Positions 9,708 to 32,101 of a stretch of 64,000 nt of DNA are shown in pieces. Numbering within the stretch: position 1 is the first letter of the stretch; each line of letters opens with the position of its first letter. A model generated the notes under the pieces. The model ran no database searches. It was not told the DNA's origin and saw only the letters and a program-made list of their open reading frames with translations. A program made the translations under genes and the position numbers. The stretch is taken from contig OZ251500.1 of NCBI GenBank assembly GCA_965242755.1, positions 1,921,339-1,985,338 on the forward strand. Direction: 5' to 3'. Origin of the DNA: Dehalococcoidia bacterium. Its GTDB lineage: Bacteria; Chloroflexota; Dehalococcoidia; Lucifugimonadales; Australimonadaceae.

Positions 9708-9886
9708 CGCGGGGGGATAGCGCAACCCTGCGCGGCGACCGCCCTGACCGCGCAGGCGCGAATCTATGCGGCGCGCAAGCGCCGTTCCTACCTCCCCAAC
9801 GCCCCGACCTGGCCGCGAAAGCGGGAACCTACTGGGCTTAATTAGACACCCTTGAGATACCATATCGGCGAACGGAGGACGACCTT

Positions 9887-10687: not shown

Positions 10688-10689
10688 CG

Positions 10690-11094: not shown

Positions 11095-11131
11095 AGCGTC
11101 GCGGCGCCCGCCTCCTGCGCGGCGCGAATCT

Positions 11132-11995: not shown

Positions 11996-12080
11996 AGCGA
12001 ACTCCGCGCCTGCTCGGCGCATTCGTCTGCGGGGGTTAGTGTAGCAGGTTCCGGTCGCGCGTACATCGTCGCGGCTCGCC

Positions 12081-12247
12081 GCGTTCGCGGGGCGCGAGCG
12101 CGTAGGACGTGCGGCGAGGAGGGCGCGACGGAGGCGGAGTTGGCGTAATGGCGAATGGCGATGCAGAGGCGCGCGGCTTCGGATCCGGAGATGCTGGTCG
12201 AGATTGAGGCCGACGCGGTCGTCGCCGATGACCAGGACGGCTGCTAG
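12081..12247 (+). pseudogene. Rearrangement scar: mutS2 3-prime-end fragment followed by ridA 3-prime-end fragment
   Basis: 12081-12109 is the exact reverse complement of mutS2 9643-9671. 12110-12148 is a near-identical direct copy of mutS2 9672-9707 including the stop. 12184-12247 copies the last ~64 nt of ridA (11031-11094) including the stop. Confidence 0.7.
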
Positions 12248-12292
12248 AGCGTCGCGGCGCCTGCCTCCTGCGCGGCGCGAATCTCTACGCGC

Positions 12293-13084: not shown

Positions 13085-13238
13085 AGCGAACTCCGCGTCT
13101 GCTCGGCGCATCCGTCTGCGATGGGTAGTGTAGCACAGGCTCCGGAGACATTTGCAAACCTCCCGCCCTGCCCGCTTTCGCAGGAGCGCCACCCCGCCCC
13201 CGCCATCCCCGCTTTCGCGGAAACCCACCGCCCCGCTC

Positions 13239-15784: not shown

Positions 15785-15892
15785 GAGACCTTTGCATAAC
15801 CTGTCGCCCTGCCCCGCGTAGGCGGGAATCCATAGCGGAGCGAAGCGCTCCCACGTAAGCGCTCGTCATTCCCGCGTAGGCGGGAATCCAGG
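15785..15892. repeat. Composite repeat-family copy (one TIR-type end plus two CCCGCGTAGGCGGGAATCC hairpins)
   Basis: GAGACCTTTGCATAAC, then CCCGCGTAGGCGGGAATCC, then GCGCTCCCACGTAAGCGC, then CCCGCGTAGGCGGGAATCC. Confidence 0.65.
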
Positions 15893-16080
15893 AACCCGCC
15901 TAGGCTGCCGTAGGCATTCGCCCTTCAGCGCCCCATCGTCGTCTACGCAGTTATGCTCCTCTTCTACGAAGAGGAGGAGGCGCTTGCGCGGCGAGCTGGA
16001 TTCCCGCCTACGCGGGAATGACGGTAGTCCCCGCGCCGCTTGCGGCGCGCGGCGCCGCTGGTGTACGCTTGCGCTCCGCT

Positions 16081-19000
16081 ATGCCCATCGCCAACCTGAA
16101 CGACGCCCGCGAAGTCGACGGCGCCATCGGGCGCGTCTTCCGCGCCAACTCCGCCGACGAGCGCGAGGCCGCCGTCCGCAGCCTCTTCGTCGAGGCGCTG
16201 GACTTCGAGCGCGCGTCCGGCCTAGTCGCCCTGGACATGCGGCATGGGGCGGACGCGCGGCATAGGACGGGCGGCGCGTCCGCGAGCGTTAGGCTCCCCG
16301 AAGACGCCCGGCGCGTCGCCTCGCTCGACGGCGTTCACGTCCTCTACGTTGACCTCGCGGAGGGCGACGCGCCCCCGAACCGCGTCCGCGCGGCGGAGGC
16401 GGCGACGGCGGCGCAACGCATCGCCGAAAGCCTCGGCGAGGATCTGCTGCTCGTCTTCACCTGCGCGGCCTCAAGCGAACGCGCCGGCGGAGTCGGCCCC
16501 GCGTCGAGACCGGGGGCGTCGCAGGCTGGAGCCGGCGCCGCGTCGCAAATCCACGTCGTCCGGCCGGCGTTCCGCGGACGGCGGCCGACGCTTCGCAGGA
16601 TCGTCGTCGAGCGCGGACTGCCGCGGCGCACCGCCGTTCAGCAGGTCGCCAACATCTACGCCGAATGGACGACGACGCGCAACCTCCGCGGCGCCCTCGA
16701 CGCCGCCTTCGACGTGGAGCGCGTCACCAACGCCTTCTTCTCAACCTACCGCGAACTCTTCGAGGGCGCCGCCGCGCTTGTTCAGGGGTTCGCGGACGAC
16801 GAGGGCGACGAGAGGCGCCTGTTCGTCCTCACGCTCTTCAACCGGCTGATGTTCGTCTACTTCCTCTCGCGCAAGGGATGGCTGACGTTCCGCGGCGACA
16901 GGGAGTATCTCGACGCGCTCTGGGCCGACTATCAGGCCAACCGGGGGAGCGTCGGCTTCTACGGGGAGCGGCTGCGCCCCCTCTTCTTCGCCGGCCTCAA
17001 CAACTCCCAATCGCAAGACCTCAACTGGGAGGGCAAGCCGCTCGCCGCGCTCATCGGCAGCGTCCCCTTCCTCAACGGCGGGCTCTTCGCCGAAACGCCC
17101 CTCGACAAGCGCTCCGGCGTCGTCGTCCCCGACGAGGCCGTCAGGCCCGTCCTCAGCGAGTTGTTCGGCAAGTTCAACTTCACCGTGATGGAGTCCACGC
17201 CTTTCGACGTCGAGGTCGCCGTCGACCCGGAGATGCTCGGCAAGGTGTTCGAGGAACTCGTCACGGGCCGGCATTCGTCGGGCGCCTACTACACGCCGCG
17301 GCCCGTCGTCGCCTTTATGTGCCGCGAGGCGCTCAAGGGCTACCTCGCCGACCGCCTGCCCGCGCTGGGGCGGGACGACCTCGCCGCGTTCGTGGACGAC
17401 CGCGCCCTTACGCGGGCGACCGTCGACCATGCGGACGCGCTCCGCGACGCGCTGCGGGGCGCCGCCGTCGTGGACCCCGCCTGCGGCTCCGGCGCCTATC
17501 TGCTCGGCATGCTGCAGGAACTCGTCGAACTCGCGTCCCTGCTCGACGCCGACGCGCTCCGCGCCAGCGCCAACTATATGCACGACCTCAAGCGCCGCGT
17601 CATCGAGCGCAACATCCACGGCGCCGACAAGGACGAATTCGCCGTCAACATCGCGATGCTCCGCCTCTGGCTCTCCCTCGCCATCGAGCACGAAGGCGAC
17701 CGCCCCCAGCCGCTCCCCAACCTCGACTTCAAGATCGTCTGCGGCGACAGCCTCCTCGCCCCGGACCCCAACCCGGCGGACTATCCCGATCTGTTCCGGC
17801 GCGCCGCGCTCGAAAAGGCCGACGCGCTTGACCGCGCCAAAGAGCGCCACTTCGCCGCCGCAGGCTCCGCCAAGCAAGAGGCCGAACTCGACGTTCAGAA
17901 CGCGAAAGCCGCGCTCGCCGAAGCGCTCGAAGCCGCCGCTCCGGAAGGCGCCGTTGATTGGCGCATCGAGTTCGCCGACGTCTTCGCCAAGCGCGGCGGC
18001 TTCGACATCGCCGTCGCCAATCCGCCCTACGTCCGGCAAGAGGAGATCGGCCCCGCCAAAGCGCAATTGGAGCGGCTGTACGCCCCGGCTGCGAGGGGGC
18101 GCTCCGACCTCTATTGCTACTTCTACCTGCGCGCCCTCCAACTGCTCGCGCCCGGCGGCATGCACGTGTTCATCTGCTCCAACTCATGGCTGGACGTCGG
18201 CTACGGCGAGCCGCTGAAAGCGCAACTCCTCGCCGACGCCTCCGTCCGCGCCGTCTACGAAAGCGCCGTCGAACGGCAATTCTCCACCGCCGACGTCAAC
18301 ACCATCATTAGCATCATCCAAAAGACGCCGCCGCGGGGGGCGGCCCAAACGCGGTTCGTCTCCCTGCGGGCGGAGTTCGACTTGGCGCTGGCGGACGCGG
18401 AGAAACGGCGCGAGATTGTCGCAACGAGCGGTTCGGGGGAGACCAAGTCGGCGGATTTGGCGGCGTATCCTACGCCGCCAAATCCGCCGACTTCGCAATT
18501 TTCGGAATTCCGCCTTTCCGCCGCCGACAAGTGGGGAGCGGTCTACCTCCGCGCCCCGGACATTTATCACGCGATCCTCGCCAAAGGCGCGGGCAAACTC
18601 GTCCGCCTCGGCGACGTTGCGAATGTCAAATTCGGCATAAAGACCGGCGCGAACGACTTCTTCTACCTCGACCGCGCCGCCGTCGCCCATTGGGGAATGG
18701 AGGAGCGCTTCCTCGCGCCCGTGATGACCTCCCCGCAAGAGTCGCGCAGCATCCTGGTGGATCCCGCGACGCTCCCCTACCGCCTTTTCCTCTGCAACGA
18801 AGACCGCGAGGCTCTCGCCGGAACCGCCGCGCTCAACTACATCCGCCACGGCGAAGCGCAAGGCTTCCACAAGCGCAGCAGCGTCCGCTCGCGCAAACTC
18901 TGGTATGGGCTGGGGGACAGAGAACCAATTAACTTGGCTATGAACAAACTCGTGAACACGACCGCGCGAACATTCCTTGTCCGTAACGGCATGCTTTTCA

Positions 19001-19377
19001 CCGACAATTTTCAGATATTCGCATCCGACGCCGCTCCTGCCATCATCTGCGCTTTGATGAACTCATCAGTAACGCAACTGGCCGTCAACATCACTGCTCG
19101 AGCGAATTTCGGGCAGGGCGTGCTTGAGATACAAACCTACGAGACCGAAAACTTGCTGATACTCGACCCTTCAACGTATGGAGAGGCCAATGAGGACATC
19201 TTTCGTTCGGCGCAGTGGGACGTATTGGATCCGTCGGCGGAGCGTCGGGAGATAGACGGGGTAGTGTTCGATGCGTTGGGTCTGACGGAGGGGGAGCGGG
19301 CTGGGGTGTACGAGGCGGCGTCGGAGTTGGTGACGCGGCGCATTGAGAAGGCGAGGAGTCTGCGTAAGGGCGGGTAG
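16081..19377 (+). CDS. Large gamma-class N6-adenine DNA methyltransferase (Eco57I/PglX/type IIG-like) with a C-terminal specificity region
   Basis: Helical spacer motif LFVLTLFNRLMFVYFLSRKGWL, GAYYTPRPVV, motif I VVDPACGSGAYLLG, NIHGADKDEFAVNIAMLRLWL, and motif IV DIAVANPPYV. About 400 aa follow as a TaqI-like C-terminal region. The start is moved to ATG 16081 (MPIANLND) because the earlier start lies in a repeat module. Confidence 0.85.
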   Translation: MPIANLNDAREVDGAIGRVFRANSADEREAAVRSLFVEALDFERASGLVALDMRHGADARHRTGGASASVRLPEDARRVASLDGVHVLYVDLAEGDAPPNRVRAAEAATAAQRIAESLGEDLLLVFTCAASSERAGGVGPASRPGASQAGAGAASQIHVVRPAFRGRRPTLRRIVVERGLPRRTAVQQVANIYAEWTTTRNLRGALDAAFDVERVTNAFFSTYRELFEGAAALVQGFADDEGDERRLFVLTLFNRLMFVYFLSRKGWLTFRGDREYLDALWADYQANRGSVGFYGERLRPLFFAGLNNSQSQDLNWEGKPLAALIGSVPFLNGGLFAETPLDKRSGVVVPDEAVRPVLSELFGKFNFTVMESTPFDVEVAVDPEMLGKVFEELVTGRHSSGAYYTPRPVVAFMCREALKGYLADRLPALGRDDLAAFVDDRALTRATVDHADALRDALRGAAVVDPACGSGAYLLGMLQELVELASLLDADALRASANYMHDLKRRVIERNIHGADKDEFAVNIAMLRLWLSLAIEHEGDRPQPLPNLDFKIVCGDSLLAPDPNPADYPDLFRRAALEKADALDRAKERHFAAAGSAKQEAELDVQNAKAALAEALEAAAPEGAVDWRIEFADVFAKRGGFDIAVANPPYVRQEEIGPAKAQLERLYAPAARGRSDLYCYFYLRALQLLAPGGMHVFICSNSWLDVGYGEPLKAQLLADASVRAVYESAVERQFSTADVNTIISIIQKTPPRGAAQTRFVSLRAEFDLALADAEKRREIVATSGSGETKSADLAAYPTPPNPPTSQFSEFRLSAADKWGAVYLRAPDIYHAILAKGAGKLVRLGDVANVKFGIKTGANDFFYLDRAAVAHWGMEERFLAPVMTSPQESRSILVDPATLPYRLFLCNEDREALAGTAALNYIRHGEAQGFHKRSSVRSRKLWYGLGDREPINLAMNKLVNTTARTFLVRNGMLFTDNFQIFASDAAPAIICALMNSSVTQLAVNITARANFGQGVLEIQTYETENLLILDPSTYGEANEDIFRSAQWDVLDPSAERREIDGVVFDALGLTEGERAGVYEAASELVTRRIEKARSLRKGG

Positions 19378-19486: not shown

Positions 19487-19630
19487 GGAGACCTTTGCAT
19501 AACTCCCGGGCCCCAGTAGGTTCCCGCTTTCGCGGGAACGACGGGGCGCTTACGTAGGAGAGGAGCGGCGCTCCGCGCCGCCTGGATTCCCGCCTACGCG
19601 GGAATGACGGTAGGTTATGCAAAGGTCTCC
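19487..19630. mobile_element. MITE-like element (144 bp) with perfect 17-bp TIRs, followed by a partial second copy up to 19712
   Basis: GGAGACCTTTGCATAAC at 19487-19503 is the reverse complement of GTTATGCAAAGGTCTCC at 19614-19630. The interior is the reverse complement of the units at 51834-51954 and 60027-60140. The right half is repeated at about 19646-19712. Confidence 0.55.
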
Positions 19631-19806
19631 AAAGGGAGAGGGCGGGAGCGGCGCTCCGCGCCGCCTGGATTCCCGCCTACGCGGGAATGACGGTAGGTTA
19701 TGCAAAGGTCTCCCTCTGGGAGAGGACGGCGCGCAAGCGGGTTCGGGGAGCCTGCTCGCGCCCGGCCCTCCCCCAGATTCTGTTAAGATGAGCAGAGGGA
19801 GACGCT

Positions 19807-20448
19807 ATGCCTGTTCCAGCCAACCCGAAGATCTACCACATCGTTCACGTAGACCGCCTGCCGTCCATCGTCGCGGACGGCTTTATTTGGAGCGACGCGG
19901 AGGCTGGTCGGCGCGACGCGCCCGGCACGACGATCGGCGTGGACAAGATCAAGCGGCGGCGGCTGAGCGAGTTGACGTTGGGCAACAGCCATCCGGATTT
20001 GCATGTGGGCGAATGCGCCCCGTTCTACTTCTGCCCGCGCTCCGTGATGCTGTACGTGATCCACATGGCGAACCTCCCTGAACTGACCTATCAGGGCGGG
20101 CAAGGCCCAATCGTTCACTTACAGGCCGACCTGCGCCAATCAGTCGCTTGGGCGGACGCCAACCGCCGCCGCTGGGCGTTCACGACATCCAGCGCCGCCG
20201 CCAAGGAATTTGAGGATTACAACGACTTGGCTCATTTAGACAAGGTCGACTGGGACGCGGTGGAGTCTCAGGATTGGCGAGGACGTCGGGGGAAGCAAGC
20301 AGAATTCTTGATGGAACATTCGTTCCCGTGGAGTCTGGTTGAGCGCATTGGCGCTCACTCGCCCGAAATCTGTGATAGAGTGCGGGTGGCGATGACGGGA
20401 GCGGAACATCAGCCGGTTGTCGAGGCGACCCCGACCTGGTGCTACTAG
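19807..20448 (+). CDS. darT: DarT (DUF4433) DNA ADP-ribosyltransferase toxin
   Basis: KIYHIVHVDRLPSIV, APFYFCPRSVMLYVIH and RRGKQAEFLMEHSFPWSLVERIG match the DarT pattern, including the catalytic Glu context QAEFL. Confidence 0.85.
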   Translation: MPVPANPKIYHIVHVDRLPSIVADGFIWSDAEAGRRDAPGTTIGVDKIKRRRLSELTLGNSHPDLHVGECAPFYFCPRSVMLYVIHMANLPELTYQGGQGPIVHLQADLRQSVAWADANRRRWAFTTSSAAAKEFEDYNDLAHLDKVDWDAVESQDWRGRRGKQAEFLMEHSFPWSLVERIGAHSPEICDRVRVAMTGAEHQPVVEATPTWCY

Positions 20449-20463: not shown

Positions 20464-21495
20464 ATGATCGAGTACAAGACAGGCGACATTACGGGCGAGG
20501 ACGCCGAGGCGCTCGTCAACACGGTCAACTGCGTTGGCGTTATGGGCAAGGGCGTCGCCTTGAGTTTCAAGGAAGCCTTCCCCGACAACGCGCGGGCATA
20601 CGCAAGGGCTTGCGAGCGCAAAGAGGTCGAGCCCGGGCGCATGTTCGTGTTCGAAACGGAGTCGCCCGCCAACCCGCGCTACATCGTCAACTTTCCGACC
20701 AAGCGGCACTGGCGCGGCAAGAGCAAGATGGAGGACATCGAGTCCGGCCTCGCGGCGCTGGGCGAAGAAGTGCGGAGCCGGGGGATACGGTCCATCGCCT
20801 TGCCGCCGTTGGGCAGCGGGCTCGGCGGGCTGGACTGGAGCGCGGTGCGCCCGCGCATCGAGAAAACCATCGGGGCGATGGAAAGCGTCAGAGTCGTTGT
20901 CTTCCAGCCAAGCGGTCAAGCGCAGCCGTTCGTCCCAAGTCCCCTTGCGCCGAAGATGACGGTAGGCAGGGCGGCGCTCGTCGCGCTGATCGACCGCTAC
21001 CTGGCGGGGCTGCTGGACCCGTTCGTAACGTTGTTGGAGACCCAGAAACTCATGTACTTTATGCAAGAGGCGGGCGAACCGTTGAACCTGCGGTTCCAGG
21101 AAGGCCATTACGGCCCCTACGCCGACAACCTGCGCCACGTCCTGAAAGCCATCGAAGGCCACTTCGTGTCGGGCTACGCCAGCCGCGACGCCCCGGATGA
21201 GACGATAGACCTCGTGCCCGGGACGGTTGACGACGCCAACGCTTTCCTGCAAGACCACCCCGAAACCCGAGTGCGCTTTGAGCGCGTGAGCGACCTCGTT
21301 GACGGCTTCGAATCGTCCTTCGGCCTCGAACTGCTGGCGACGACGCATTGGGTCGCATCGCCGTCCGCGCCGCCTGAAGAGGTCATCGCCCGCGTCCACG
21401 CTTGGGGCGAGCGAAAGCGGCGGTTCTCGGAACGGCAAATCCGCCTAGCCCTAGACGCGCTCGGCGAAAAGGGCTGGATCGAGTCCCCTGCGTAG
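20464..21495 (+). CDS. darG: DarG macrodomain antitoxin (DNA ADP-ribosyl glycohydrolase)
   Basis: GDITGEDAEALVNTVNCVGVMGKGVALSFKEAFP...IVNFPTKRHWRGKSKMEDIESGL...IRSIALPPLGSGLGGLDW is the DarG macrodomain signature. A ~190-aa C-terminal domain follows. The gene starts 16 nt after darT. Confidence 0.85.
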   Translation: MIEYKTGDITGEDAEALVNTVNCVGVMGKGVALSFKEAFPDNARAYARACERKEVEPGRMFVFETESPANPRYIVNFPTKRHWRGKSKMEDIESGLAALGEEVRSRGIRSIALPPLGSGLGGLDWSAVRPRIEKTIGAMESVRVVVFQPSGQAQPFVPSPLAPKMTVGRAALVALIDRYLAGLLDPFVTLLETQKLMYFMQEAGEPLNLRFQEGHYGPYADNLRHVLKAIEGHFVSGYASRDAPDETIDLVPGTVDDANAFLQDHPETRVRFERVSDLVDGFESSFGLELLATTHWVASPSAPPEEVIARVHAWGERKRRFSERQIRLALDALGEKGWIESPA

Positions 21496-21511: not shown

Positions 21512-22063
21512 ATGATGCTCGCGCCGGTTGACCCAATCGAAAGCCACGCCGCCCACAGCGAACGGCTGCTTGACCACGCGGCGCGGATGATCGAGGAAGG
21601 CGACCGCGTTCAGGCGTGCGAGAAGATTTGGGGCTCGGTGTCGCACCGCCTCCGCGAGATCGCCTACAAGCGCGGCTGGCCGGTCAAGGCGAACGCCGAC
21701 TACCGCGACGTCGCCCGCTACGTCGCGCAGGAGACGGGCGACGAGGAGTTGCAGGGGTTGGGGGCGTTTCAGGCGTATCACGTCAACTTCTACGAAGACA
21801 CGATGGACGAGGCGGACATCCGGGAAGGGCTGGAGAGGGCGCGGCGCGCATGCGAGGAACTGGACGCGGCGGACGCGGCGCTGGACGAGAGTCTCCCTCC
21901 GCCGCATGGCCCGGCGTTCCGCTCCTACGAGCGCCGGCATGGCCTCGTTCCGAACCCGCCGTATTCGGCGGAAGAGTGGGCGGAGCATTGCCGTCGCCAA
22001 GACCGGCTCGCCGAGCGGGCGAAGGCCAACGCCGCGCGCGCCGGATTCCCGCCGTCCGCCTAA
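21512..22063 (+). CDS. PaREP1-like (HEPN-superfamily helical bundle) protein
   Basis: EEGDRVQACEKIWGSVSHRLREIAYKRGWPVKANADYRDVARYV...FQAYHVNFYEDTMD matches the PaREP1 pattern (GD..qA.EK.WGA....lKa.A..rGW....H..l...v......A..LH.NFYE). It starts 16 nt after darG and is preceded by GGGAGG. Confidence 0.5.
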   Translation: MMLAPVDPIESHAAHSERLLDHAARMIEEGDRVQACEKIWGSVSHRLREIAYKRGWPVKANADYRDVARYVAQETGDEELQGLGAFQAYHVNFYEDTMDEADIREGLERARRACEELDAADAALDESLPPPHGPAFRSYERRHGLVPNPPYSAEEWAEHCRRQDRLAERAKANAARAGFPPSA

Positions 22064-22212
22064 CGGACCCCGGCGCCCCCCGCCATGACCGCGTAGGCGG
22101 GGATTCTCCTGGGATGCAGGGAAGGCAAAAGTCGCTTACGGGGAAATGCGGCGCGCGGAGCCGCATATGCTACACTCGGCGGGCCGCGTAGGCCCAACCT
22201 CCTCCCATCGCA

Positions 22213-25200
22213 ATGAACGTTCTGCACGCCCGCACCGATCCGCCTCTGCTTGACCGGCTCAAGGAGATGCTGGCGCATTCCGCGCGGGCGGACTTCGCCG
22301 TCGGCTACTTCTTCATCAGCGGATTCGAGGCGGTCGCGGATAGTCTGGCCGGCGTCCAAAAGGCGCGGATTCTCGTCGGGCATGCGGACAAGCAGGTGAC
22401 GGAGCAGGTCGCCTACGGGCTGCAGCAGGCGGAGGCGATTCGGGCGCGGCAAGAGGCGGACGACTCCCCGCGGCGGCGGGAGCGAGAGGAGTCGGCGCGC
22501 CGCGCCGCCGAGAACGTCGGCAAGGCGGCGTCGCTGATGCCGCAGGACGCCGCGTCGGAGCGCGCCGTCGCCGCGCTGCGCGACCTGATCGCGTCGGGGC
22601 GCGCGGAGGTCCGCTCCTACGCGCGCGGGCCGCTCCACGCCAAGGCGTACCTCTGCTGGTACGAAGGCCACGCCGAGCCGGGGGCGGCGGTGGTGGGGTC
22701 GTCCAACCTGACGCTGGCGGGCTTCACGCGCAACACGGAACTGAACGTGCGCGTGACCGGCGACGCGGAGATGCGGGAGTTGGGCCGCTGGTTCGACGAA
22801 CTGTGGGAGGACTCCGCCGACATCGGGCAGGAGATCGTCGAGGAACTGAACCGCTCATGGGCGCTCGCGCGCACGACGCCCTACGAGGTCTACCTCAAGG
22901 CGCTGTGCGAACTCTACGGGGATGAGGCGGGAGAGCCGCTGCCGCTCGCGCCTGGCCGCTCCGAGGAACTGGCGAACTTCCAACTGGACGCGGCGGCGCG
23001 GGCGCTGCGGATGATTGACGAGCGCGGGGGCTGCTACATCGGGGACGTGGTGGGGCTTGGGAAGACGTTCATCGGGGCGGAGATCCTGCGCCAGTTGCGC
23101 GTGAGTTATCCGAACGACGGGCCGCCGCTCATCCTCTGCCCCGCCGGGCTCGTTCCGATGTGGCGCCGCTTCAACGAGCGATTCGGACTCGGCGCGGAGG
23201 TCGTCTCGCACAGCATAATCGGCGAACCGCCCGGGCAGGAGTACGACGACGAATTAGGGCGCTACGTGGACGCGGACGCGCCCGGCGGCGGGATCATTCT
23301 GCGCGAGGCGTACCCGAACCGCGGCGCCGTGCTGGTGGACGAGGCGCACAACTTCCGCAACGTCAACCGCCGCTCGCGCGGCCTGCGGAACTACCTCGAA
23401 TCGGGCTCCCACAAAGTCGTCCTCCTCAGCGCCACTCCGCAGAACCTCGGCCCGATGGACGTCTACCGGCAGTTGCGCCTCTTCCTCGACGAGACGGCGC
23501 ACGGCCTCGACATCGACCCCGTCAACCTGGAGGAGTACTTCCGCAACGCGCAGCGCTGGCGCGAATTCCGCGCCGACGACGAAAACTACCGCAAGTCCTA
23601 CGAGAAATGGGAGCGCGGCGGGCGAGCCGGCCCCGCCCCAATGAACAAGCCGTCGCCGCCCGGCGTCCCCCGCGCCGACGTCGAGAATGTGCTGCATCCG
23701 GTGTTCATACGCCGCCGCCGGAAGGACATCGTCGAAATCTACGGCGCAAGCGCGGAGGTCAACGGCAAGCCCGTTCGCTTCCCCGAGCCGCGCCTCGACA
23801 ACCTCTCCTACCGCCTGGACGCCGTCTACAAGAAAGCGGGCGCGCTGCCCGACCTGATGGCGGCGCTGGATGCTCATACGGGAGCGCGCTACCGCGCCGC
23901 CGAGTACGTGAAGCCGGAAGCCCGCGACAAGCCGGAGCACCGCGACCTCTTCCGCGCCGGAGACCGCATCGCCGGCCTGATGCGCGTCCAACTGCTCAAG
24001 CGGCTGGAGTCCAGCATCGAGGCGTTCCGCTCCACGCTCAACTCGCTCGCCCAGAGCAACCGCAAATTCGCGCAAGCGCTCAAATCCGGCTATGTCCCCA
24101 TCGGGCGAACCGCCGCCCGGATGCTCGCGGGGCAGGGATTCGGCGCGGACGAACTGCTCGACGTCTTGCGCCAGGAAGAGGAGCGGCGGGGCGGCGCGGG
24201 CGGCGGAAGCCGCGGCAAATTCACGCATGCGGCCGCGGACTTCCGCGTCAAGGACTGGATCGCCGACCTCGACAAGGACCACGCCGCGCTGAGCGGGTTG
24301 CTCGACAGGGTGAAGGACATCGGCCCCGAGGACGACAGCAAACTCGCCGCGCTCCGCGAGTTCCTCAAGCGCCCCGACGTTCAGGCGGGCAAACTCCTCG
24401 TCTTCTCGGAGGCGGAGACCACGATCGACTACCTCTACCGCCAACTGAATCCGGACGGCGCCGACCCGTCCATCGCGCGACTCTCCGGCTCGAACCGCGA
24501 TCAGATTGAGCAGATCACGCGGCGCTTCTCCCCGGGCTCGAACGGCGGCGCGCCAAGCGGCGCGGCGGAAGCGCGCGCGCTCCTCGCGACCGACGTCGTG
24601 TCGGAGGGGCAGAATCTGCAGGATTGCGCCCGCGTGCTCAACTACGACCTCCACTGGAACCCGGTGCGCCTCATTCAACGCTTCGGTCGCGTCGACCGCA
24701 TCGGCTCCGAACACGCCTTCATCCACCTCCACAATATGTGGCCGGACATGGAAGTGGACGCGAGGCTTTCCTTGACCGAGCGCCTCCGTAACCGCGTCCA
24801 GTGGTTCCACGACCTCATTGGGCTGGACACGAAACTCCTCTCGGAAGCGGAGCGGCTGAACGGCGCGGCGATGTACCGCATCTACGAACGCAAAGAGTTG
24901 CCCGATGACGAGGATGACATGGACGAGGCGGCCGCGGGCCAGCGCGGCGTCGCCTTGCTCCAACGGATCAGGGAGAGCGATCCGTCGCTCTGGGAACGGC
25001 TCGCCTCGCTCCCCGACGGGATCCGCTCCGCGCTGCGCGTCAGGTCCGCCCAGGGCTCGGAGCCAGGCGGCGCGCAAGCGGGCGGACGATCGGGCGAGGA
25101 AGGCGGCGGGGCGCAAATTCCGCTCGTGTCGCCGTCGGACCCCGGCGCGCCGCCGTCCGCGTTCGATCCGCCCCGGCCAGGCGAAACGCTTGCGCTTATG

Positions 25201-25689
25201 GCGGCCGGCGGCGTGAGGCAGTGCTACGCGGTCGGGAGCGACTTGCAGCCCCGCGCAGTGAGCCCCGCGCAGTTCGCCGCAGCCGCCGCCTGCGAGCCGG
25301 ACACGCCCGCCGCTCCGCTTCCCGACGATACGAACGAGCGCGTTACGGCCGCGAGCGCCGACTTCCGCCGGAGCCTCGGCAGACGGCTGGGCAGAGCCCG
25401 CCGCCCCCACGACGCGCGCCGACGCTACGTCGAGCGCAGCCTCCGCGACCCGGAGGTCGACGATCCGCGCGCGGACGCCCTGCGCCGCATCTTCACCAAC
25501 GACCTCCCGCATGAAGCGGAGACCGCGCTCAACGACGCCCGCCGCTTGGGGCTGCAAGGCAAAGCCTTGCTCGACCGCCTCCACGCGCTCCGCGAGCGCC
25601 ACCGCCTCAACCCGCCGGAGGCGGCGGACGCGGAAGCCGCGCAGCCGCGGGTCGTCCGCATCGTCTGCTCCGACGGCCTCGCGGAGTAG
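22213..25689 (+). CDS. PLD(HKD)-nuclease domain fused to an SNF2-family helicase/translocase
   Basis: The N-terminus carries a single HKD motif (GPLHAKAYLCW...VVGSSNLTLAGF). SNF2 motifs follow: DVVGLGKTFIG (I), VLVDEAHNFRN (II), LLSATPQNL (III), LLATDVVSEGQNLQD (V), NYDLHWNPVRLIQRFGRVDRIG (VI). Confidence 0.85.
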   Translation: MNVLHARTDPPLLDRLKEMLAHSARADFAVGYFFISGFEAVADSLAGVQKARILVGHADKQVTEQVAYGLQQAEAIRARQEADDSPRRREREESARRAAENVGKAASLMPQDAASERAVAALRDLIASGRAEVRSYARGPLHAKAYLCWYEGHAEPGAAVVGSSNLTLAGFTRNTELNVRVTGDAEMRELGRWFDELWEDSADIGQEIVEELNRSWALARTTPYEVYLKALCELYGDEAGEPLPLAPGRSEELANFQLDAAARALRMIDERGGCYIGDVVGLGKTFIGAEILRQLRVSYPNDGPPLILCPAGLVPMWRRFNERFGLGAEVVSHSIIGEPPGQEYDDELGRYVDADAPGGGIILREAYPNRGAVLVDEAHNFRNVNRRSRGLRNYLESGSHKVVLLSATPQNLGPMDVYRQLRLFLDETAHGLDIDPVNLEEYFRNAQRWREFRADDENYRKSYEKWERGGRAGPAPMNKPSPPGVPRADVENVLHPVFIRRRRKDIVEIYGASAEVNGKPVRFPEPRLDNLSYRLDAVYKKAGALPDLMAALDAHTGARYRAAEYVKPEARDKPEHRDLFRAGDRIAGLMRVQLLKRLESSIEAFRSTLNSLAQSNRKFAQALKSGYVPIGRTAARMLAGQGFGADELLDVLRQEEERRGGAGGGSRGKFTHAAADFRVKDWIADLDKDHAALSGLLDRVKDIGPEDDSKLAALREFLKRPDVQAGKLLVFSEAETTIDYLYRQLNPDGADPSIARLSGSNRDQIEQITRRFSPGSNGGAPSGAAEARALLATDVVSEGQNLQDCARVLNYDLHWNPVRLIQRFGRVDRIGSEHAFIHLHNMWPDMEVDARLSLTERLRNRVQWFHDLIGLDTKLLSEAERLNGAAMYRIYERKELPDDEDDMDEAAAGQRGVALLQRIRESDPSLWERLASLPDGIRSALRVRSAQGSEPGGAQAGGRSGEEGGGAQIPLVSPSDPGAPPSAFDPPRPGETLALMAAGGVRQCYAVGSDLQPRAVSPAQFAAAAACEPDTPAAPLPDDTNERVTAASADFRRSLGRRLGRARRPHDARRRYVERSLRDPEVDDPRADALRRIFTNDLPHEAETALNDARRLGLQGKALLDRLHALRERHRLNPPEAADAEAAQPRVVRIVCSDGLAE

Positions 25690-26870: not shown

Positions 26871-29366
26871 TTGGGGACGCGGACGGGCAAGCCGCGCGGG
26901 GAGGCCAACTCATTGCCTGAAGCATATCGTCAAGCGCGGAGGGCGGGTCGCGCCTCTCGTTTTTGGCTGCCGGCCGCCGCGCTTGGCCTCGCGGCGATAG
27001 CCGCCGCCGCGTGCTCCGGGTCTGCGCCGTCGCCTACGCCTTCGGCGTCCGCCGCGCCCGCCCCAACGCCTGCGATCAGGATCGTCGAGTCGCTCGCCGC
27101 GCCCTCCGGGGTCGCCGTGGACGCCGCCGACAGGCGCCTCGCCGTTTCGTGGAGCCCGGTCGACGGCGCGACGGGCTACAAGGTCGCCGCCAGGCTGAAG
27201 AACGGCGTCGAACCCTTCGAGTGGAGCGAATACGCGGCGGACTCGTCGCCCTACGTCGTTCCTGACAGGTGGGCGGCGATGAGCGGGCTAGAGTATGAAG
27301 TCCGGACCGCCTCGGTCAACGCGGAAGGGCAATCCGTTTGGTCCGCCTCCGTTGCGGTGACGGCCCCCGAACTTCCCCGGGCGCCCGCCGGGGCCCTTGA
27401 AACTGAGACCTCCGGCCCGTATGCGGTGGGGGATCTGATGCGCGCGAGCCTGAGGAGCCAGAGGCCGATCGACCGCAAGTCGCTGTTCGTTTGGTCGGTA
27501 TGCGATCCGGAGGGGCAAGAGTGCGAACTGTTGCCCATCGTTGAACCGTCTTCCTATCTCTACCTTGTTCCTTGGGCCGCGCGAGGAAAGCGCGTGCAGG
27601 TTCAGACAGACTACGACAAAGACGGCTTGTCGTACACCGCAACGATTGCTCTTGGGGTCGTCAGTCTCACAGGATCGACTTTTCCTCAAGTGGATATGCC
27701 TCCGGGATGCGAGAGAGCGGCCCCTTCCGCGAGCGTGAACGCATTTACCCCGGAACCTCCTCTGTCTACGCTTTTGCACTACGTGGGATCGGAATCGGTT
27801 CAAATCGATTGGGACGGCGTAGGCGGCGGGGCTAGCGAGCCGCTCTGCAACGACCTGCTGGTCGCGACGCCTTGGGGGAGGATGGCCTTGGTGCGCGCGA
27901 ATGGAAAGGTGGAGCAACTCGAAGGGCAAGTTCCGATGAATTTAGAGGGGTTGCGCGAGCATCCGGACAGCTCCACCTTCGCTCCCAGCAGGTTTCGAGT
28001 CGCCGATATCCTGCTGAAGCAGCGCTCCAATTATCTATGGGATCTGTTCGTCACTCATCATTACTTCACTGGAGATTGCACTCGGTTTCGCTTGTCGTCC
28101 ACGATGGTTGCGATGGAAAACGGCAACCCTATAGTGTCCCCTTCATGGAGAACATTGTTCGATGCTGATCCATGCTTGGACTCGCCGGCGCATAGCGGAT
28201 ATCACTCGGGCGGGAAAATGTTAACTGACGGGGCGGAGCATCTGTTGGTCGTGATTGGCGACCATGGCTGGCTAAATACGGGCGGGGACACGCCGGGCGG
28301 ACGCGCTCTCTGGGCTCCTCAAGATCCCGGATCCCATTTAGGCAAACTGGTCCGCGTCGAAATCGCCTCCGGCGAGACGGAGATCCTGGCGTTTGGCCTT
28401 CGCAATCCGCAAGGGTTTGCGCGGGATGCGGAAGGCAATCTCTGGGAAACCGAGCACGGGCCGCAGGGCGGCGACGAACTCAACCTGCTCGAACCCGGTC
28501 TCAATTACGGCTGGCCTTCGGCAAGTTACGGAATTCCGTACGGCGGATACGTCATGGCTTCAGAAGTAGACGCTGTGGGCGAGCACGAAGGCTTTGTCAA
28601 ACCCAGATTCGCATGGGCCACCGCCATCGGCGTATCCGCCATGGTCGTGAATGACAAACGATGGTTTCCTCTGTGGAGAGACGACCTGCTGATCGGTTCG
28701 CTGGGATCCGATGAAACCGGGCGCTCGCTCTTCCGCGTCCGGCTCGACGGGACCCGCGCGCAGTATGTGGAGCGGATACCTGTCGGCGGGCGAGTGCGAG
28801 ACATCGCCCAGATGCCGGACGGACGCATAGCGCTGCTTATCGACGGGGGAACAGTCCGCTTCCTAAGCCGATCATCAGAACCCTGCGCCGACCGGACGGA
28901 GGAGCGACTGCGGCAGCGACTGCCGGTCTACGCGATTGGCTGCGACGCTTTGGCCGCGTTCGAAGCGAACCAAGCGGATTCGACGGACGAGAACGCGGGA
29001 GGGGCATACATCAGCCAAGACCCGTCGAGTTTAGCGAACGGCGCAAACTCAGCGGAAGGCAAGCCCGCCAGTGGAGCGCAACTCTACATGACGAACTGTG
29101 AAATCTGCCATAGCCTTGTCGCCAACCAGCACGGAATCGGTCCGCATCTTGCGAATCTCGTTGGGCGACGCATCGGGGAAGTGGACGGATGGAATTCGTC
29201 AGGGGCGCTCCGCTCGCTCGACGGCGTATGGACGCGGGACAGCCTCGCGCGGTTCCTCGCGGATCCGCAGGCGTTCGCGCCGGGGACGACGATGGGGTCG
29301 CAGGGGCTCTCCGAGTCGGAGGCCAGGGCTATCGCGGACTATGTCGCCGGACTGCGGGGCGAGTAG
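26871..29366 (+). CDS. Secreted lipoprotein: FN3-like module, PQQ-dependent sugar dehydrogenase beta-propeller and C-terminal cytochrome c domain (paralogue 1)
   Basis: Lipobox AIAAAACSG. FN3-like WSPVDGATGYKVAARLKNG. The SGDH signature reads FGLRNPQGFARDAEGNLWETEHGPQGGDELNLLEPGLNYGWP. Heme c site CEICH. It has a TTG start. Confidence 0.8.
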   Translation: MGTRTGKPRGEANSLPEAYRQARRAGRASRFWLPAAALGLAAIAAAACSGSAPSPTPSASAAPAPTPAIRIVESLAAPSGVAVDAADRRLAVSWSPVDGATGYKVAARLKNGVEPFEWSEYAADSSPYVVPDRWAAMSGLEYEVRTASVNAEGQSVWSASVAVTAPELPRAPAGALETETSGPYAVGDLMRASLRSQRPIDRKSLFVWSVCDPEGQECELLPIVEPSSYLYLVPWAARGKRVQVQTDYDKDGLSYTATIALGVVSLTGSTFPQVDMPPGCERAAPSASVNAFTPEPPLSTLLHYVGSESVQIDWDGVGGGASEPLCNDLLVATPWGRMALVRANGKVEQLEGQVPMNLEGLREHPDSSTFAPSRFRVADILLKQRSNYLWDLFVTHHYFTGDCTRFRLSSTMVAMENGNPIVSPSWRTLFDADPCLDSPAHSGYHSGGKMLTDGAEHLLVVIGDHGWLNTGGDTPGGRALWAPQDPGSHLGKLVRVEIASGETEILAFGLRNPQGFARDAEGNLWETEHGPQGGDELNLLEPGLNYGWPSASYGIPYGGYVMASEVDAVGEHEGFVKPRFAWATAIGVSAMVVNDKRWFPLWRDDLLIGSLGSDETGRSLFRVRLDGTRAQYVERIPVGGRVRDIAQMPDGRIALLIDGGTVRFLSRSSEPCADRTEERLRQRLPVYAIGCDALAAFEANQADSTDENAGGAYISQDPSSLANGANSAEGKPASGAQLYMTNCEICHSLVANQHGIGPHLANLVGRRIGEVDGWNSSGALRSLDGVWTRDSLARFLADPQAFAPGTTMGSQGLSESEARAIADYVAGLRGE

Positions 29367-29367
29367 G

Positions 29368-29428
29368 CTACGCCTCCAAGCGGCGGCAGCGCCGAGCGGC
29401 GGCGCTGAGGACGGCGATGAGCGCGAAG
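29368..29428 (-). pseudogene. Remnant of the 3-prime end of the MFS transporter gene, carried along by the tandem duplication
   Basis: CTACGCCTCCAAGCGGCGGCAGCGCCGAGCGGCGGCGCTGAGGACGGCGATGAGCGCGA matches 32135-32195 (the real MFS gene end) with a few substitutions. Confidence 0.6.
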
Positions 29429-29674
29429 GCGCGACCAACGCCGCAATGGAGCGCGCCCGGCAACGGCAAACCCGCTTCGGTCTGTGGCATACTCAACAAG
29501 CGGGCTGGAAGAGAAGCAACAAACCTGCTCCTCAGGCAAGAGGCGGCCGCGCCGCTGAAGCGGCTAAACGCGCGTCGATGTCGATGCGCTCGCCGCCCCG
29601 GGGCGTTGATCGCGAAATCGGAGTCCTGCCTACGCGCGCCGCCCCGCGCGCCGGCGGCGCGCGGGGCGCTAGCA

Positions 29675-32101
29675 TTGGAGAAGCGAATAGGCAAGCTGCG
29701 GGAGGCCAACTCGTTGCCTGGAACAGATCGTCATCAAGCGCGGAGAACGGGACGCTTGTTTCATTGGGCGGCGTCGGCGCTTGGCTTCGCGGCGATAGCC
29801 GCCGCCGCGTGCTCCGGGTCTGCGCCGTCGCCTGCGCCATCGGCGTCCGTCGCGCCCACCCTTACGCCTACCCCTAGAATCATCGCATCGCTAGCCGCTC
29901 CCTCCCGCGTCACGGCGTCCGCCGCCGACAGGCGGCTCGCCGTTTCGTGGAGCCCGGTCGATGGCGCGACAGGCTATAAGGTCGCCGCCAGGCTGAAGAA
30001 CGGCGTCGAACCCTTCGAGTGGAGCGAACATGAGGCAAACTCGCCGCCCTACGTCATTGCGGAGCGGTGGGCGGCGATGAGCGGGCTGGAGTACGAGATT
30101 CGGACCGCCTCGGTCAACAACGACGGTCAATCCGCATGGTCCCCCCCCGTTGCGGTGACGGCTCCTGAACTTCGATCAGCATCCCCCGATGCGGTCGGAA
30201 TCCTGTCCTCGCCTCCTTACAGGGCGGGAGACCTTATGCAGGTCCAATTATCCAGTCAACGTCCGTTCGCCCGCAGGTCGCTGTGGGTTTGGTCGGTATG
30301 CGATTCAGACGGGCAAGAATGTGAACTATTGGATCTCGATGAGGAGAGGTCTTACGATAAATTAGTCCCAGCAGCGGCGCGAGGGAAGCGCATGCAAATT
30401 CAGGTGGACTACGACAAGGATGGCTTGTCCTACACGGCGACGGCGGCGGTGGGGGTTGTCGGCCTTGAAGACGGTTGGGGGCCGACCCTCCCTAGCCCGA
30501 CGCTCCCGCCGGGTTGCGAGGGAGCGGCTCTTCCGTCGGGCGGAGGCGCATTCGCGTCGGACGGCGCTCTGGCTACGCTCTTGCATCATATAGAGTCTCA
30601 GTCGGTCGCTGTAGATTGGGACAACGCAACCGGAGGAGCGATCGAACCGCTCTGCAACAACGCGCTCGTCGTAACGCCATGGGGCCGGATAGCGCTGGCG
30701 CGTCCGAACGGAGCCGTGGACTATCTGGATGGCCGCGTTCCGATGAATCTGGAAGGACTTCTGTCTCATCAGGACAGCGCGACCTTCTACCCTGACGTCT
30801 TTCGAGTCACCGACGTTTTGCTGAGGCAGCAGTCGGAAGACCTCTGGGAGATGTTCGTTACGCATCATTATTTCACAGGAGAATGCAATCGGTTCCGCTT
30901 GTCTGCCGCAACGATTCTTTGGCAAGCGGGGGCGGCTTCAGTCTCGCCTGATTGGAGGACGATATTCGACGCCGATCCTTGCATGCCTCCTCAGGGGGTT
31001 TGGGGGAGGCACGCGGGCGGGAAAATGTTGACGGATGGGCCCGATCATCTCCTCGTTGTCGTCGGAGATCACAACTATAAGTGGACGCCACAGAATCCCG
31101 AATCTCATATGGGCAAATTGGTTCGGATTGCGATTGATTCGGGAGAAGCGGAGTTTCTGGCTTTCGGTCTTCGGAATCCGCAAGGATTCGCCCGTGACGC
31201 GGAGGGCAATCTCTGGGAGACGGAGCACGGGCCGCTAGGCGGCGATGAACTCAATATCCTCGAGCCCGGCTCCAATTACGGGTGGCCTTCGGCGAGTTAC
31301 GGAATCGACTACACCAGGCGAGTTAGCTTACGGGAGTGGGAGACTGCAGGCAAGCACGAAGGCTTCGTAAAACCCCGCTTCGCTTGGGTTCCCTCGATCG
31401 GCATCTCCGCCGTTATTGTGAACGATGAGCAATGGTTTCCGTTGTGGAGAGACGACCTTTTGGTCGCTTCGCTAGCGGGCGCCCAGGGAAGCGGCAAAGC
31501 GCTCTTCCGGGTCCGTCGCGACGGGACGGATGTCCGGTATGTCGAACGCATCGAGGTCGGCTACCGCATGCGCGACCTGACGCAGATGCCGGACGGGCGC
31601 ATAGCCGTGCTTGCCGACGGCGGCAGCGTCCACTTCCTCAGCCTCTCCCCGCACTGCGATGAGGAGTCGCGGCGTCAGCAACTCGTCTACGTCATCGGCT
31701 GCGGCCCCTTGGGCGACGGAGCGGCAGACGCGCCTGGATCGGGCGGCCCACCGTCTACTACTCCTCCCGTCGTCGTCGGGGACGCGGACGAGGCCGCCGC
31801 AGCGTCAGGCGCTCGGTTATACGCGGTGAACTGCGCCGCCTGCCATAGCCTTGTCGCCAATCAGCACGGAATAGGCCCGCACCTCGTCGGCCTCATCGGG
31901 CGGCGCATCGGGGAAGTGGACGGATGGAATTCGTCAGAGGCGCTCCGCTCGCTCGGCGGCGTATGGACGCGGGACAGCCTCGCGCAGTTCCTCGCGGATC
32001 CGCAGGCGTTCGCGCCGGGGACGACGATGGGCGCGCAAGGGCTCTCCGAGCCGGAGGCCATGGCTATCGCGGACTACATCGCCGGACTGCGGGGCGAGTA
32101 G
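29675..32101 (+). CDS. FN3-like, PQQ sugar dehydrogenase and cytochrome c lipoprotein (paralogue 2)
   Basis: Same architecture as 26871..29366. The start is set to the in-frame TTG at 29675, because the GCGCTAGCATTGG start context and the signal peptide align with paralogue 1. Signatures: FGLRNPQGFARDAEGNLWETEHGPLGGDELNILEPGSNYGWP and CAACH. Confidence 0.75.
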   Translation: MEKRIGKLREANSLPGTDRHQARRTGRLFHWAASALGFAAIAAAACSGSAPSPAPSASVAPTLTPTPRIIASLAAPSRVTASAADRRLAVSWSPVDGATGYKVAARLKNGVEPFEWSEHEANSPPYVIAERWAAMSGLEYEIRTASVNNDGQSAWSPPVAVTAPELRSASPDAVGILSSPPYRAGDLMQVQLSSQRPFARRSLWVWSVCDSDGQECELLDLDEERSYDKLVPAAARGKRMQIQVDYDKDGLSYTATAAVGVVGLEDGWGPTLPSPTLPPGCEGAALPSGGGAFASDGALATLLHHIESQSVAVDWDNATGGAIEPLCNNALVVTPWGRIALARPNGAVDYLDGRVPMNLEGLLSHQDSATFYPDVFRVTDVLLRQQSEDLWEMFVTHHYFTGECNRFRLSAATILWQAGAASVSPDWRTIFDADPCMPPQGVWGRHAGGKMLTDGPDHLLVVVGDHNYKWTPQNPESHMGKLVRIAIDSGEAEFLAFGLRNPQGFARDAEGNLWETEHGPLGGDELNILEPGSNYGWPSASYGIDYTRRVSLREWETAGKHEGFVKPRFAWVPSIGISAVIVNDEQWFPLWRDDLLVASLAGAQGSGKALFRVRRDGTDVRYVERIEVGYRMRDLTQMPDGRIAVLADGGSVHFLSLSPHCDEESRRQQLVYVIGCGPLGDGAADAPGSGGPPSTTPPVVVGDADEAAAASGARLYAVNCAACHSLVANQHGIGPHLVGLIGRRIGEVDGWNSSEALRSLGGVWTRDSLAQFLADPQAFAPGTTMGAQGLSEPEAMAIADYIAGLRGE

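Follow-up and report, generated by a model that had tools for sequence, protein, structure and literature searches.

Gene content of the locus

The window analysed here is a stretch of 64,000 nucleotides from a Dehalococcoidia bacterium (assembly GCA_965242755.1, contig OZ251500.1, positions 1,921,339 to 1,985,338 of the forward strand). It holds a five-gene locus in which a gene for a nuclease-motor fusion, consisting of a PLD nuclease domain with the HKD motif and an SNF2 ATPase (HKD-SNF2, 22213..25689, + strand), lies downstream of a gene for an N6-adenine DNA methyltransferase (16081..19377, + strand). The two genes are not adjacent. A gap of 2.8 kb between them holds three further genes, which were not mentioned in an earlier interpretation made from the letters alone (the sequence-only reading). 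All five genes are on one strand and the locus is limited by a thioredoxin/AhpC gene and a cupin gene (other strand).

The HKD-SNF2 gene and protein

The open reading frame (ORF) at 22213..25689 was found to start with ATG and to encode 1158 amino acids (aa), as stated earlier. The GC content of the window is approximately 68%, and GC content at the third codon position tells genes from chance ORFs in it. For HKD-SNF2 the position-specific GC was 0.73, 0.48 and 0.89 at codon positions 1, 2 and 3, respectively. The ORF is a real gene and no GC-rich chance ORF, because of its third-position GC of 0.89 against 0.48 at the second position, its Pfam domains and its more than 4,200 homologues in the protein search (E ≤ 1e-10). 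Among the 120 matches listed, the homologues were 60-100% identical at a query coverage of 98-100% and had a length of approximately 1145-1180 aa.

Pfam analysis of the N-terminal part showed PLDc_2 at aa 114-198 (1.8e-9) and the PLD family RE_NgoFVII at aa 135-202 (3e-5), and the core of the nuclease domain was placed at 22552..22806 (+). Exactly one HKD motif was present in the chain, with H142-A-K144, G162SSNLT (residues 162-167) and E176LN (residues 176-178). Single-HKD nucleases such as Nuc, BfiI and SauUSI work as dimers. Since HKD-SNF2 has one HKD motif per chain, its active site would need two chains.

Lobe 1 of the SNF2 ATPase (22969..23508, +) contained motif I GLGKT (residues 281-285, 23053..23067), motif II DEAH (residues 376-379, 23338..23349) and motif III SAT (residues 406-408), and its nearest solved relatives in PDB sequence matches were CHD1L, ISWI and RAD26 over aa 253-427. 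Lobe 2 (24340..24705, +) was detected as Pfam Helicase_C at aa 710-831 (1.3e-13) and contained motif V (residues 792-804) and motif VI QRFGRVDRIG (residues 822-831), with RapA as the nearest solved relative (aa 787-844). A match to SNF2-rel_dom stayed below threshold and the PDB sequence search returned no solved structure of any close relative of HKD-SNF2. The lobes are separated by a helical insertion of approximately 270 aa (23500..24330, +) which had no Pfam match at E ≤ 1. Thus, the fusion proposed in the sequence-only reading, with a single N-terminal HKD motif and SNF2 motifs I, II, III, V and VI, was confirmed by the Pfam matches and the motif positions. Homologues of only approximately 30% identity, of cyanobacterial, archaeal, actinobacterial and Thermus origin, had kept all of the HKD and SNF2 motifs.

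SNF2 proteins translocate along duplex DNA, and on the Pfam and PADLOC matches, the motifs and the homologues, HKD-SNF2 is predicted to be a translocase-nuclease (restriction) subunit. No recognisable DNA-sequence-reading domain was found in it by Pfam or fold search, and no modified-base reader (SRA/DUF3427, EVE, YTH etc.) was detected with Pfam or Foldseek. The top PADLOC model was PDLC01075 "C3a139 HKD+Snf2" (8.4e-51, aa 12-863), whose label stems from a survey of genes neighbouring type III CRISPR systems (PMC6546367).

The C-terminal region (aa 850-1158) produced zero Pfam matches even at E ≤ 1. Its AlphaFold model had a predicted local distance difference test score (pLDDT) of 85-96 over model residues 130-290, with an ordered core at approximately 90. 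The modelled unit at approximately aa 979-1139 was predicted to consist of three short strands and a helix followed by a four-helix bundle. It is preceded by a disordered low-complexity linker at approximately aa 944-985, and a conserved tail, RIVCSDGL, ends the protein. A Foldseek search of the model against the PDB showed no match (E < 1e-3; template modelling score, TM, ≤ 0.25), and the extension of approximately 300 aa that the sequence-only reading had left unassigned remained so. A profile of the C-terminal domain searched against 1.84 billion cluster representatives had 243 matches at E ≤ 1e-3. Among the long matches listed (approximately 1060-1175 aa, the size of HKD-SNF2), the domain was always at the extreme C-terminus, and the remaining matches were mostly short fragments. 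The profile found no counterpart at the C-termini of the plasmid homologues described below. Judged from these profile matches, the domain (aa 979-1158, 25147..25686, +) is a clade-specific appendage, for which a docking or regulatory role would be a guess. Protein searches with the isolated C-terminal domain of HKD-SNF2 and the isolated N-terminal domain of the methyltransferase returned same-clade fragments only. In addition, low-complexity insertions rich in Gly, Ala, Ser and Pro were observed in the methyltransferase at aa ~131-160 (16470-16570) and in HKD-SNF2 at aa ~944-985 (25040-25170). Both were predicted to be disordered and are absent or shorter in most homologues.

The partner methyltransferase

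The longest ORF of the methyltransferase begins at 16018. However, all 12 aligned homologues begin at the equivalent of M22 (MPIxN...). The start was therefore set at 16081, in agreement with the sequence-only reading, and the extra codons of the longer ORF overlap a repeat element. The resulting protein of 1098 aa is an Eco57I/type IIG-like gamma-class N6-adenine methyltransferase with its own recognition domain, as indicated by Pfam matches to Eco57I (2e-31), M_Eco57I_C (1.5e-10), MmeI_Mtase and N6_Mtase and by the PADLOC model REase_MTase_IIG (1.2e-62). The catalytic core (+) carries motif I DPACGSG at 17473..17493 and motif IV NPPY at 18019..18030. MmeI/Eco57I-type enzymes read asymmetric sites and methylate one adenine, and the protein is predicted to be the modification and specificity subunit of the pair.

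The REase_MTase_IIG match did not begin before aa 226 of the longer ORF, and the part where type IIG enzymes carry their nuclease was thus left uncovered by such profiles. This part consists of an N-terminal clade-specific alpha/beta domain (~16081..16620, +) followed by a helical spacer. The N-terminal 240 aa were aligned across 13 translated loci and, separately, 28 database proteins. The invariant positions were hydrophobic residues, glycine, proline, arginine, threonine, histidine and glutamine, and a conserved D...(D/E)xK triad was absent from the predicted strands in both alignments. The domain had no Pfam match at E ≤ 1. Its AlphaFold model was confident (pLDDT 84; predicted template modelling score, pTM, 0.82) and the best Foldseek match in the PDB had an E value of 5e-3 and a TM of 0.14, with no restriction-endonuclease fold. 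The sequence-only reading had seen no PD-(D/E)xK motif in the N-terminal ~200 aa, and the alignments and the model, which had no nuclease fold, bore this out. Within the reach of sequence analysis and fold prediction, the absence of a nuclease from the methyltransferase is as firmly supported as it can be.

The target-recognition domain was placed at ~18400..19377 (+) by the M_Eco57I_C match, its low GC and its variability. It had a GC of 0.60 and an in-frame third-position GC of 0.74 compared to 0.90 for the rest of the methyltransferase. The recognition domain differed between otherwise similar methyltransferases.

Conservation of the pair

Close relatives of HKD-SNF2 were scanned with one genome per species, which produced 19 loci, all from metagenome-assembled genomes of Dehalococcoidia/Chloroflexota, and two more were added through exact-protein look-ups. 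In 15 Dehalococcoidia loci the sequence reached at least 5 kb upstream of HKD-SNF2, and 13 of these had a methyltransferase homologue upstream on the same strand, at a distance of approximately 0.5-4 kb from HKD-SNF2. The other two loci (L011 and L013, HKD-SNF2 at 10001-13500) had an intact HKD-SNF2 gene and no methyltransferase detected within 10 kb. Locus L013 also has a duplicated segment upstream (ORFs 1721-2356 and 6059-6694, equal in length and in codon-position GC) and a GmrSD type IV gene downstream. In another Dehalococcoidia locus (L020), a separate DUF499-centred system with a DUF499 ATPase, a DUF1156 methyltransferase and an SNF2 helicase was observed at 321-12043, together with a 53-aa fragment at 14795-14947 that is 62% identical to the HKD domain of the window and is possibly a remnant of an HKD-SNF2 gene.

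To find distant relatives, 72,556 plasmids were searched with tblastn, which resulted in 168 records below 60% identity, and ten of the loci were inspected. A methyltransferase was found beside the HKD-SNF2 homologue (approximately 30% identical) in nine of them. The partner was an Eco57I-type methyltransferase in the plasmids of Picosynechococcus and Pelobacter propionicus, an Eco57I protein of 1375 aa in Halorubrum lacusprofundi and of 1363 aa in Euzebya pacifica, and an MmeI-type methyltransferase in Rhodococcus ruber and Pseudarthrobacter chlorophenolicus. The partners in Thermococcus profundus (32% identity, blastp) and Thermus oshimai (34% identity) were homologous to the methyltransferase of the window, the latter with its recognition domain as a separate ORF. 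The partner in a Prevotella plasmid was an unannotated ORF matching the methyltransferase profile. A Dolichospermum plasmid was the tenth locus and had no adjacent methyltransferase. The MmeI-type partners open with the MmeI helicase-spacer domain and had no N-terminal nuclease match. The plasmid pairs occurred in either gene order, several with abutting or overlapping reading frames.

Overall, the linked loci span Chloroflexota, Cyanobacteriota, Actinomycetota, Deinococcota, Thermodesulfobacteriota, Bacteroidota and two archaeal classes. The sequence-only reading had made its case depend on the two genes being neighbours elsewhere, which was the finding at the 13 close and nine distant plasmid loci. 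Chance co-location in defence islands was ruled out because the same class of methyltransferase is linked to HKD-SNF2 across six bacterial phyla and two archaeal classes.

Region between the two genes

Situated in this region are a DarT gene for a single-stranded DNA thymidine ADP-ribosyltransferase toxin (19807..20448, +), a DarG gene for a macrodomain DNA ADP-ribosyl glycohydrolase antitoxin (20464..21495, +) and a gene for a PaREP1-family protein of 183 aa (21512..22063, +; Pfam PaREP1 1.9e-9). DarT scored 206.9 against a cut-off of 150 with the NCBIfam model toxin_DarT (Pfam 3.5e-55), and DarG scored 435.6 against a cut-off of 250 with antitoxin_DarG, with further matches to PADLOC DarG (2.7e-131) and Pfam Macro (1.3e-23). 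Both equivalog models were above threshold and the genes are adjacent, which identified the two as a DarTG system. PaREP1 is classed as a HEPN family belonging to the HEPN-T clade (PMC3710099). The spacing was 15 bp between DarT and DarG and 16 bp between DarG and the PaREP1 gene, while 430 bp separate the methyltransferase from DarT and 149 bp separate the PaREP1 gene from HKD-SNF2. The PaREP1 gene is probably the third member of an inserted cassette. An ORF at 19617..20081 (154 aa) was judged to be spurious, as it overlaps repeats and the start of DarT and had no family match.

Direct and inverted repeat searches showed two perfect tandem copies (19562 and 19645) of a 69-nt palindrome resembling repetitive extragenic palindromes (REP-like) in the spacer between the methyltransferase and DarT (19562..19713). 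Related copies were found upstream of the methyltransferase (15810-16044) and upstream of HKD-SNF2 (22032-22107). The core of the element, ATTCCCGCCTACGCGGGAAT, had 19 strand-matches at 13 distinct intergenic sites of the window, where 0.02 were expected by chance. Six of the 13 sites bracket the three modules of the defence locus and the others are at 547, 860, 43479, 51860, 55285, 60115 and 61326. The GC content of DarT (0.61) and of the recognition-domain segment (0.60) was low compared to 0.68-0.73 elsewhere in the locus. The low GC and the bracketing REP-like elements fit the insertion of a cassette into an older gene pair and an exchange of the recognition domain.

Variable cargo and recognition domains in relatives

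The content of the gap differed between relatives. VapBC-like pairs (a PIN protein and an AF2212-like antitoxin) were found in two of the close loci (L004 and L006), a VapC family toxin in Picosynechococcus, an AbiEii toxin in Thermococcus, a DUF3644 protein in locus L019 and opposite-strand ORFs without a known family in locus L026. DUF3644 is another HEPN family met in R-M (restriction-modification) operons (PMC3710099). Some relatives had a gap without any cargo. In locus L025, where HKD-SNF2 is 89% identical to that of the window, a luciferase-like oxidoreductase gene lies immediately upstream of HKD-SNF2 and a PaREP1 gene two genes upstream. The contig ends just upstream of these genes, so that the presence of DarTG could not be judged there. 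Among the loci compared, DarTG was found in the window only; every fetched Dehalococcoidia locus that covers the sequence upstream of HKD-SNF2 lacked it. DarTG is reported to occur often with R-M systems (PMC8385414), which makes its insertion here typical rather than special. The slot between the two genes is a landing site for toxin-antitoxin and abortive-infection cargo.

Just downstream of their methyltransferase, two of the close relatives (L004, 6650-9198; L005, 6634-9198) had a tyrosine recombinase and an inverted TaqI_C recognition-domain ORF, flanked by inverted repeats (174 nt and 169 nt, 80-84% complementary) that extend into the 3' end of the methyltransferase gene. This arrangement is a recognition-domain shufflon, a kind catalogued in PMC9881135, and predicts phase-variable specificity; locus L019 probably shares it. 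A shufflon was rejected for the window itself: a recombinase, an inverted spare recognition domain and long inverted repeats at the 3' end of the methyltransferase were all lacking, and the arrangement was found in the relatives only. The varying and invertible recognition domains are as expected for a specificity subunit under diversifying selection.

Proposed mechanism and rival explanations

The methyltransferase and HKD-SNF2 probably encode a two-subunit ATP-dependent R-M enzyme. The methyltransferase would read a short DNA sequence through its own C-terminal recognition domain and N6-methylate an adenine at the site, marking the host DNA. It would not be able to cut, because its N-terminal domain is no nuclease, and cleavage would depend on the HKD-SNF2 partner. 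At unmethylated sites the methyltransferase may recruit or license HKD-SNF2, presumably through physical contact, and the SNF2 motor would then translocate on double-stranded DNA before cutting. The cut would be made when two chains join their single HKD half-sites, either in a standing dimer or when two enzymes meet. The DarT-DarG-HEPN cargo would most likely be an independent second layer of defence.

Several observations weigh against a two-subunit enzyme. The two genes of the window are parted by 2.8 kb of cargo and by REP-like elements, so that their co-transcription is not assured. No interaction surface between the two proteins was identified. The candidates that suggest themselves, the N-terminal domain of the methyltransferase and the C-terminal domain of HKD-SNF2, are both confined to the Dehalococcoidia clade and for this reason cannot form a universal interface. 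A literature search (7.7 million PMC papers, bioRxiv) found no experimental work on such a pair. In other defence systems, SNF2 proteins do not work by simple sequence-specific restriction, as in the case of HmaA (PMC11232893). Finally, HKD-SNF2 genes without a methyltransferase occurred in two of the 15 close loci (L011 and L013) and on the Dolichospermum plasmid. The motor-nuclease HsdR of type I systems is inert without its specificity partner, and the solo genes at L011 and L013 are tolerable if HKD-SNF2 is likewise inert when alone. The same two loci, with the Dolichospermum plasmid as a third case, also keep alive the possibility that HKD-SNF2 is an autonomous nuclease, either SauUSI-like (type IV) or HmaA/ZorD-like, with the methyltransferase as an unrelated orphan or degenerate type IIG neighbour in a defence island. 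This would be in line with the GmrSD type IV gene beside HKD-SNF2 in L013, with the clustering of the gene with other defence genes and the type III CRISPR neighbourhoods from which the related C3a139 model comes (PMC6546367), and with HmaA, an SNF2 defence protein that defends alone through nicking and protects against T4 (PMC11232893). The C-terminal domain could also read modified DNA. However, known modified-base reader domains were undetected, and the partner was always a nuclease-less methyltransferase of the Eco57I/MmeI type that carries a recognition domain, in six phyla and two archaeal classes. In addition, both gene orders and often overlapping or abutting frames are unlike chance island neighbours. 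Overall, an autonomous HKD-SNF2 was considered very unlikely. A less improbable account, although still an unlikely one, is a DISARM/BREX-like system in which the methyltransferase marks self and HKD-SNF2 blocks or degrades unmethylated DNA without site-specific recruitment, e.g., by loading on DNA ends or on intermediates of replication or injection. Among named defence families, the nearest to both proteins are indeed those of class 1 DISARM, with matches of DrmD (9e-35 in PADLOC, 4.9e-44 in NCBIfam), DrmC (5.9e-6) and DrmMI (2.3e-27), and this similarity was already remarked in PMC6098607. Against it, neither the locus nor the large ORFs of the window include DrmA or DrmB, and DrmD reached 151 bits against a cut-off of 610. 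The variable and invertible recognition domain favours central site recognition, although this is equally true of DISARM/BREX methylases.

The place of the cargo allows a further possibility, in which all five genes form one integrated system and the DarT-DarG-HEPN cassette is restrained by the R-M complex or senses it, firing when a phage disables restriction. PrrC, which is found with EcoprrI, is a toxin that fires in this way. The five genes share one strand and the cassette, with its spacing of 15-16 bp, sits exactly between the two R-M-like genes. DarTG is reported as a frequent companion of R-M systems (PMC8385414) and HEPN genes occur inside R-M operons, some with ADP-ribosyltransferase (ART) and Macro genes (PMC3710099). 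However, the cargo was different in almost every relative or lacking, and the pair has no conserved partnership with DarTG, since the fetched Dehalococcoidia loci covering the upstream region are without it. The REP-like elements that bracket the cassette and the lower GC of DarT both fit a recent insertion. The integrated system was accordingly rated as highly improbable, below the other explanations. An uncharacterised R-M class, combining an SNF2 motor recruited by the methyltransferase, collision-dependent HKD cutting and slot toxins that fire when a phage disables the complex, was also regarded as very doubtful.

HKD-SNF2 belongs to a large family. More than 4,000 homologues (E ≤ 1e-10) occur in bacteria and archaea and on dairy, clinical and environmental plasmids, and yet the family is unnamed, and neither biochemistry nor a defence-finder rule dedicated to it was found. 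A first characterisation would show how a remodeller-type SNF2 motor is used in restriction and how a single-HKD nuclease is licensed. Annotation would change if nuclease-less MmeI/Eco57I-type methyltransferases, now scored as "type IIG" or orphan, are subunits of two-protein enzymes. The locus of the window is a clean example with DarTG and HEPN genes between the subunits and holds no new principle.

Other features of the window

A second, unrelated methyltransferase-nuclease gene was identified 8 kb downstream of the locus (33682-35367, - strand), encoding a fusion of 561 aa with an N6_N4 DNA methylase (1e-43) and a C-terminal HNH endonuclease (2e-10). In each of two tandem paralogues at 26871-29366 (+) and 29189-32101 (+), an fn3-like region and a glucose/sorbosone dehydrogenase beta-propeller are combined with a cytochrome c domain at the C-terminus. 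The start of the second is probably later, because the mechanically called ORFs overlap by approximately 180 nt. Gene-like codon bias was seen in two adjacent, very large ORFs of 1002 and 1133 aa (43693-46701 and 46723-50124, both - strand), which matched neither Pfam nor PADLOC models. They are in the part of the window where AT skew is strongest (approximately -0.2). Upstream of the locus, a MutS2-type protein with MutS_V and Smr domains (7203-9707, +) and a Uma2-family putative endonuclease (11132-12022, -) were identified.

Comparison with known systems

Type ISP enzymes such as LlaGI and LlaBIII consist of a single polypeptide, in which the nuclease is of the Mrr-like PD-(D/E)xK type and the motor is related to HsdR. 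They methylate one strand and cleave after translocation. The locus shares their parts list, i.e., a nuclease, a double-stranded DNA translocase, a gamma-class adenine methyltransferase and a single recognition domain, and the same logic would be expected here. Membership in type ISP was rejected, as the parts are divided here between two ORFs with three genes in between, the nuclease is of the PLD type and the motor is an SNF2 motor related to RapA, CHD1L, ISWI and DrmD. Compared to type IIG enzymes, the gamma-class N6-adenine methyltransferase and the fused recognition domain were present and the N-terminal PD-(D/E)xK domain was not. SauUSI carries a modified-cytosine reader at its C-terminus and lacks a cognate methyltransferase, and BfiI has no motor. 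SauUSI, BfiI, Nuc and NgoAVII all share with HKD-SNF2 a single-HKD PLD nuclease that needs pairing, whereas HKD-SNF2 has an SNF2 motor and a conserved methyltransferase partner. In SauUSI, as cited in a passage of PMC12839542, the single-HKD PLD nuclease at the N-terminus is coupled to an SF2 ATPase. A SauUSI-like type IV enzyme was rejected because the C-terminal reader was undetected (Pfam E ≤ 1, Foldseek) and the methyltransferase partner is conserved, with an unrecognised reader function being possible.

Class 1 DISARM likewise employs DrmD as an SNF2 helicase, DrmC as a PLD nuclease and DrmMI as a large Eco57I-like N6-adenine methylase. However, its PLD and SNF2 functions are separate proteins, while they are on one chain here, and the DrmA/DrmB core is absent. 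PADLOC detected no DrmA (YprA-like helicase) or DrmB (DUF1998) in the locus or in the other large ORFs of the window, and a weak DrmA match on HKD-SNF2 covers the generic helicase C-lobe only. HKD-SNF2 scored 150.9 bits against a cut-off of 610 with NF038317 (DISARM_DrmD) and 74.9 against 950 with NF038318. DISARM membership was rejected on the absence of DrmA and DrmB and on the missed DrmD equivalog thresholds. The terms "DISARM-like" and "split type-ISP-like" used in the sequence-only reading hold as analogies and fail as memberships.

Systems of the type-2 BREX-related/Hma kind contain a DUF499 ATPase, a COG1743/DUF1156 methyltransferase, an HKD-SNF2 helicase and DUF3780 (PMC12839542). They share the effector with the locus, with an N-terminal HKD endonuclease and a Swi2/Snf2 helicase coupled to an N6-methyltransferase, and the same restriction function was proposed in that publication for HKD-helicase effectors in general. 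Membership was rejected, as no DUF499, DUF1156 or DUF3780 was found in the locus or in the large ORFs of the window and the methyltransferase is of the Eco57I type. The HmaA model matched only the helicase C-lobe of HKD-SNF2 (2e-20, aa 709-842), and the experimentally tested HmaA is a PD-(D/E)xK variant (PMC11232893).

The closest published counterpart is on the Lactococcus lactis plasmid pLd8 (van Mastrigt et al., 2018; PMC6098607). Its orf34 is a methyltransferase listed as "type IIG" in REBASE, with a recognition domain and no restriction domain, and its orf33, with PLD, SNF2 and helicase-C domains, was concluded to be most likely the supplier of restriction; the likeness to class 1 DISARM was remarked in the same paper. 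The locus has the same domain content, the same nuclease-less methyltransferase and the same proposed restriction function, being likened to pLd8 through published descriptions. It qualifies as a pLd8-type pair by a single N-terminal HKD motif with a complete SNF2 core and a neighbouring Eco57I-type methyltransferase (at 2.8 kb) without a restriction domain, and the two proteins would act together against unmethylated DNA. In addition, Milman et al. (2023; PMC9881135) listed Cj0031-like type II R-M genes with an adjacent coding sequence for PLD (cd09178) and SNF domains as inversion targets, and loci L004 and L005 share the arrangement of recombinase and inverted recognition domain described there. 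A passage of PMC3417536 credits the HKD-SWI2/SNF2 ATPase fusions of R-M systems to Iyer et al. (2006). The novelty implied by the sequence-only reading was therefore overstated. Unlike the published pairs, the window pair is on a GC-rich Dehalococcoidia chromosome and has clade-specific domains at the N-terminus of the methyltransferase and the C-terminus of HKD-SNF2, and a DarT-DarG-HEPN insert lies between its genes, which are adjacent in the pLd8 type. Overall, the locus is a real two-gene R-M-like defence pair and a new example rather than a new kind, since the same pairing and the same deduction were published in 2018 and such pairs were listed in 2023.

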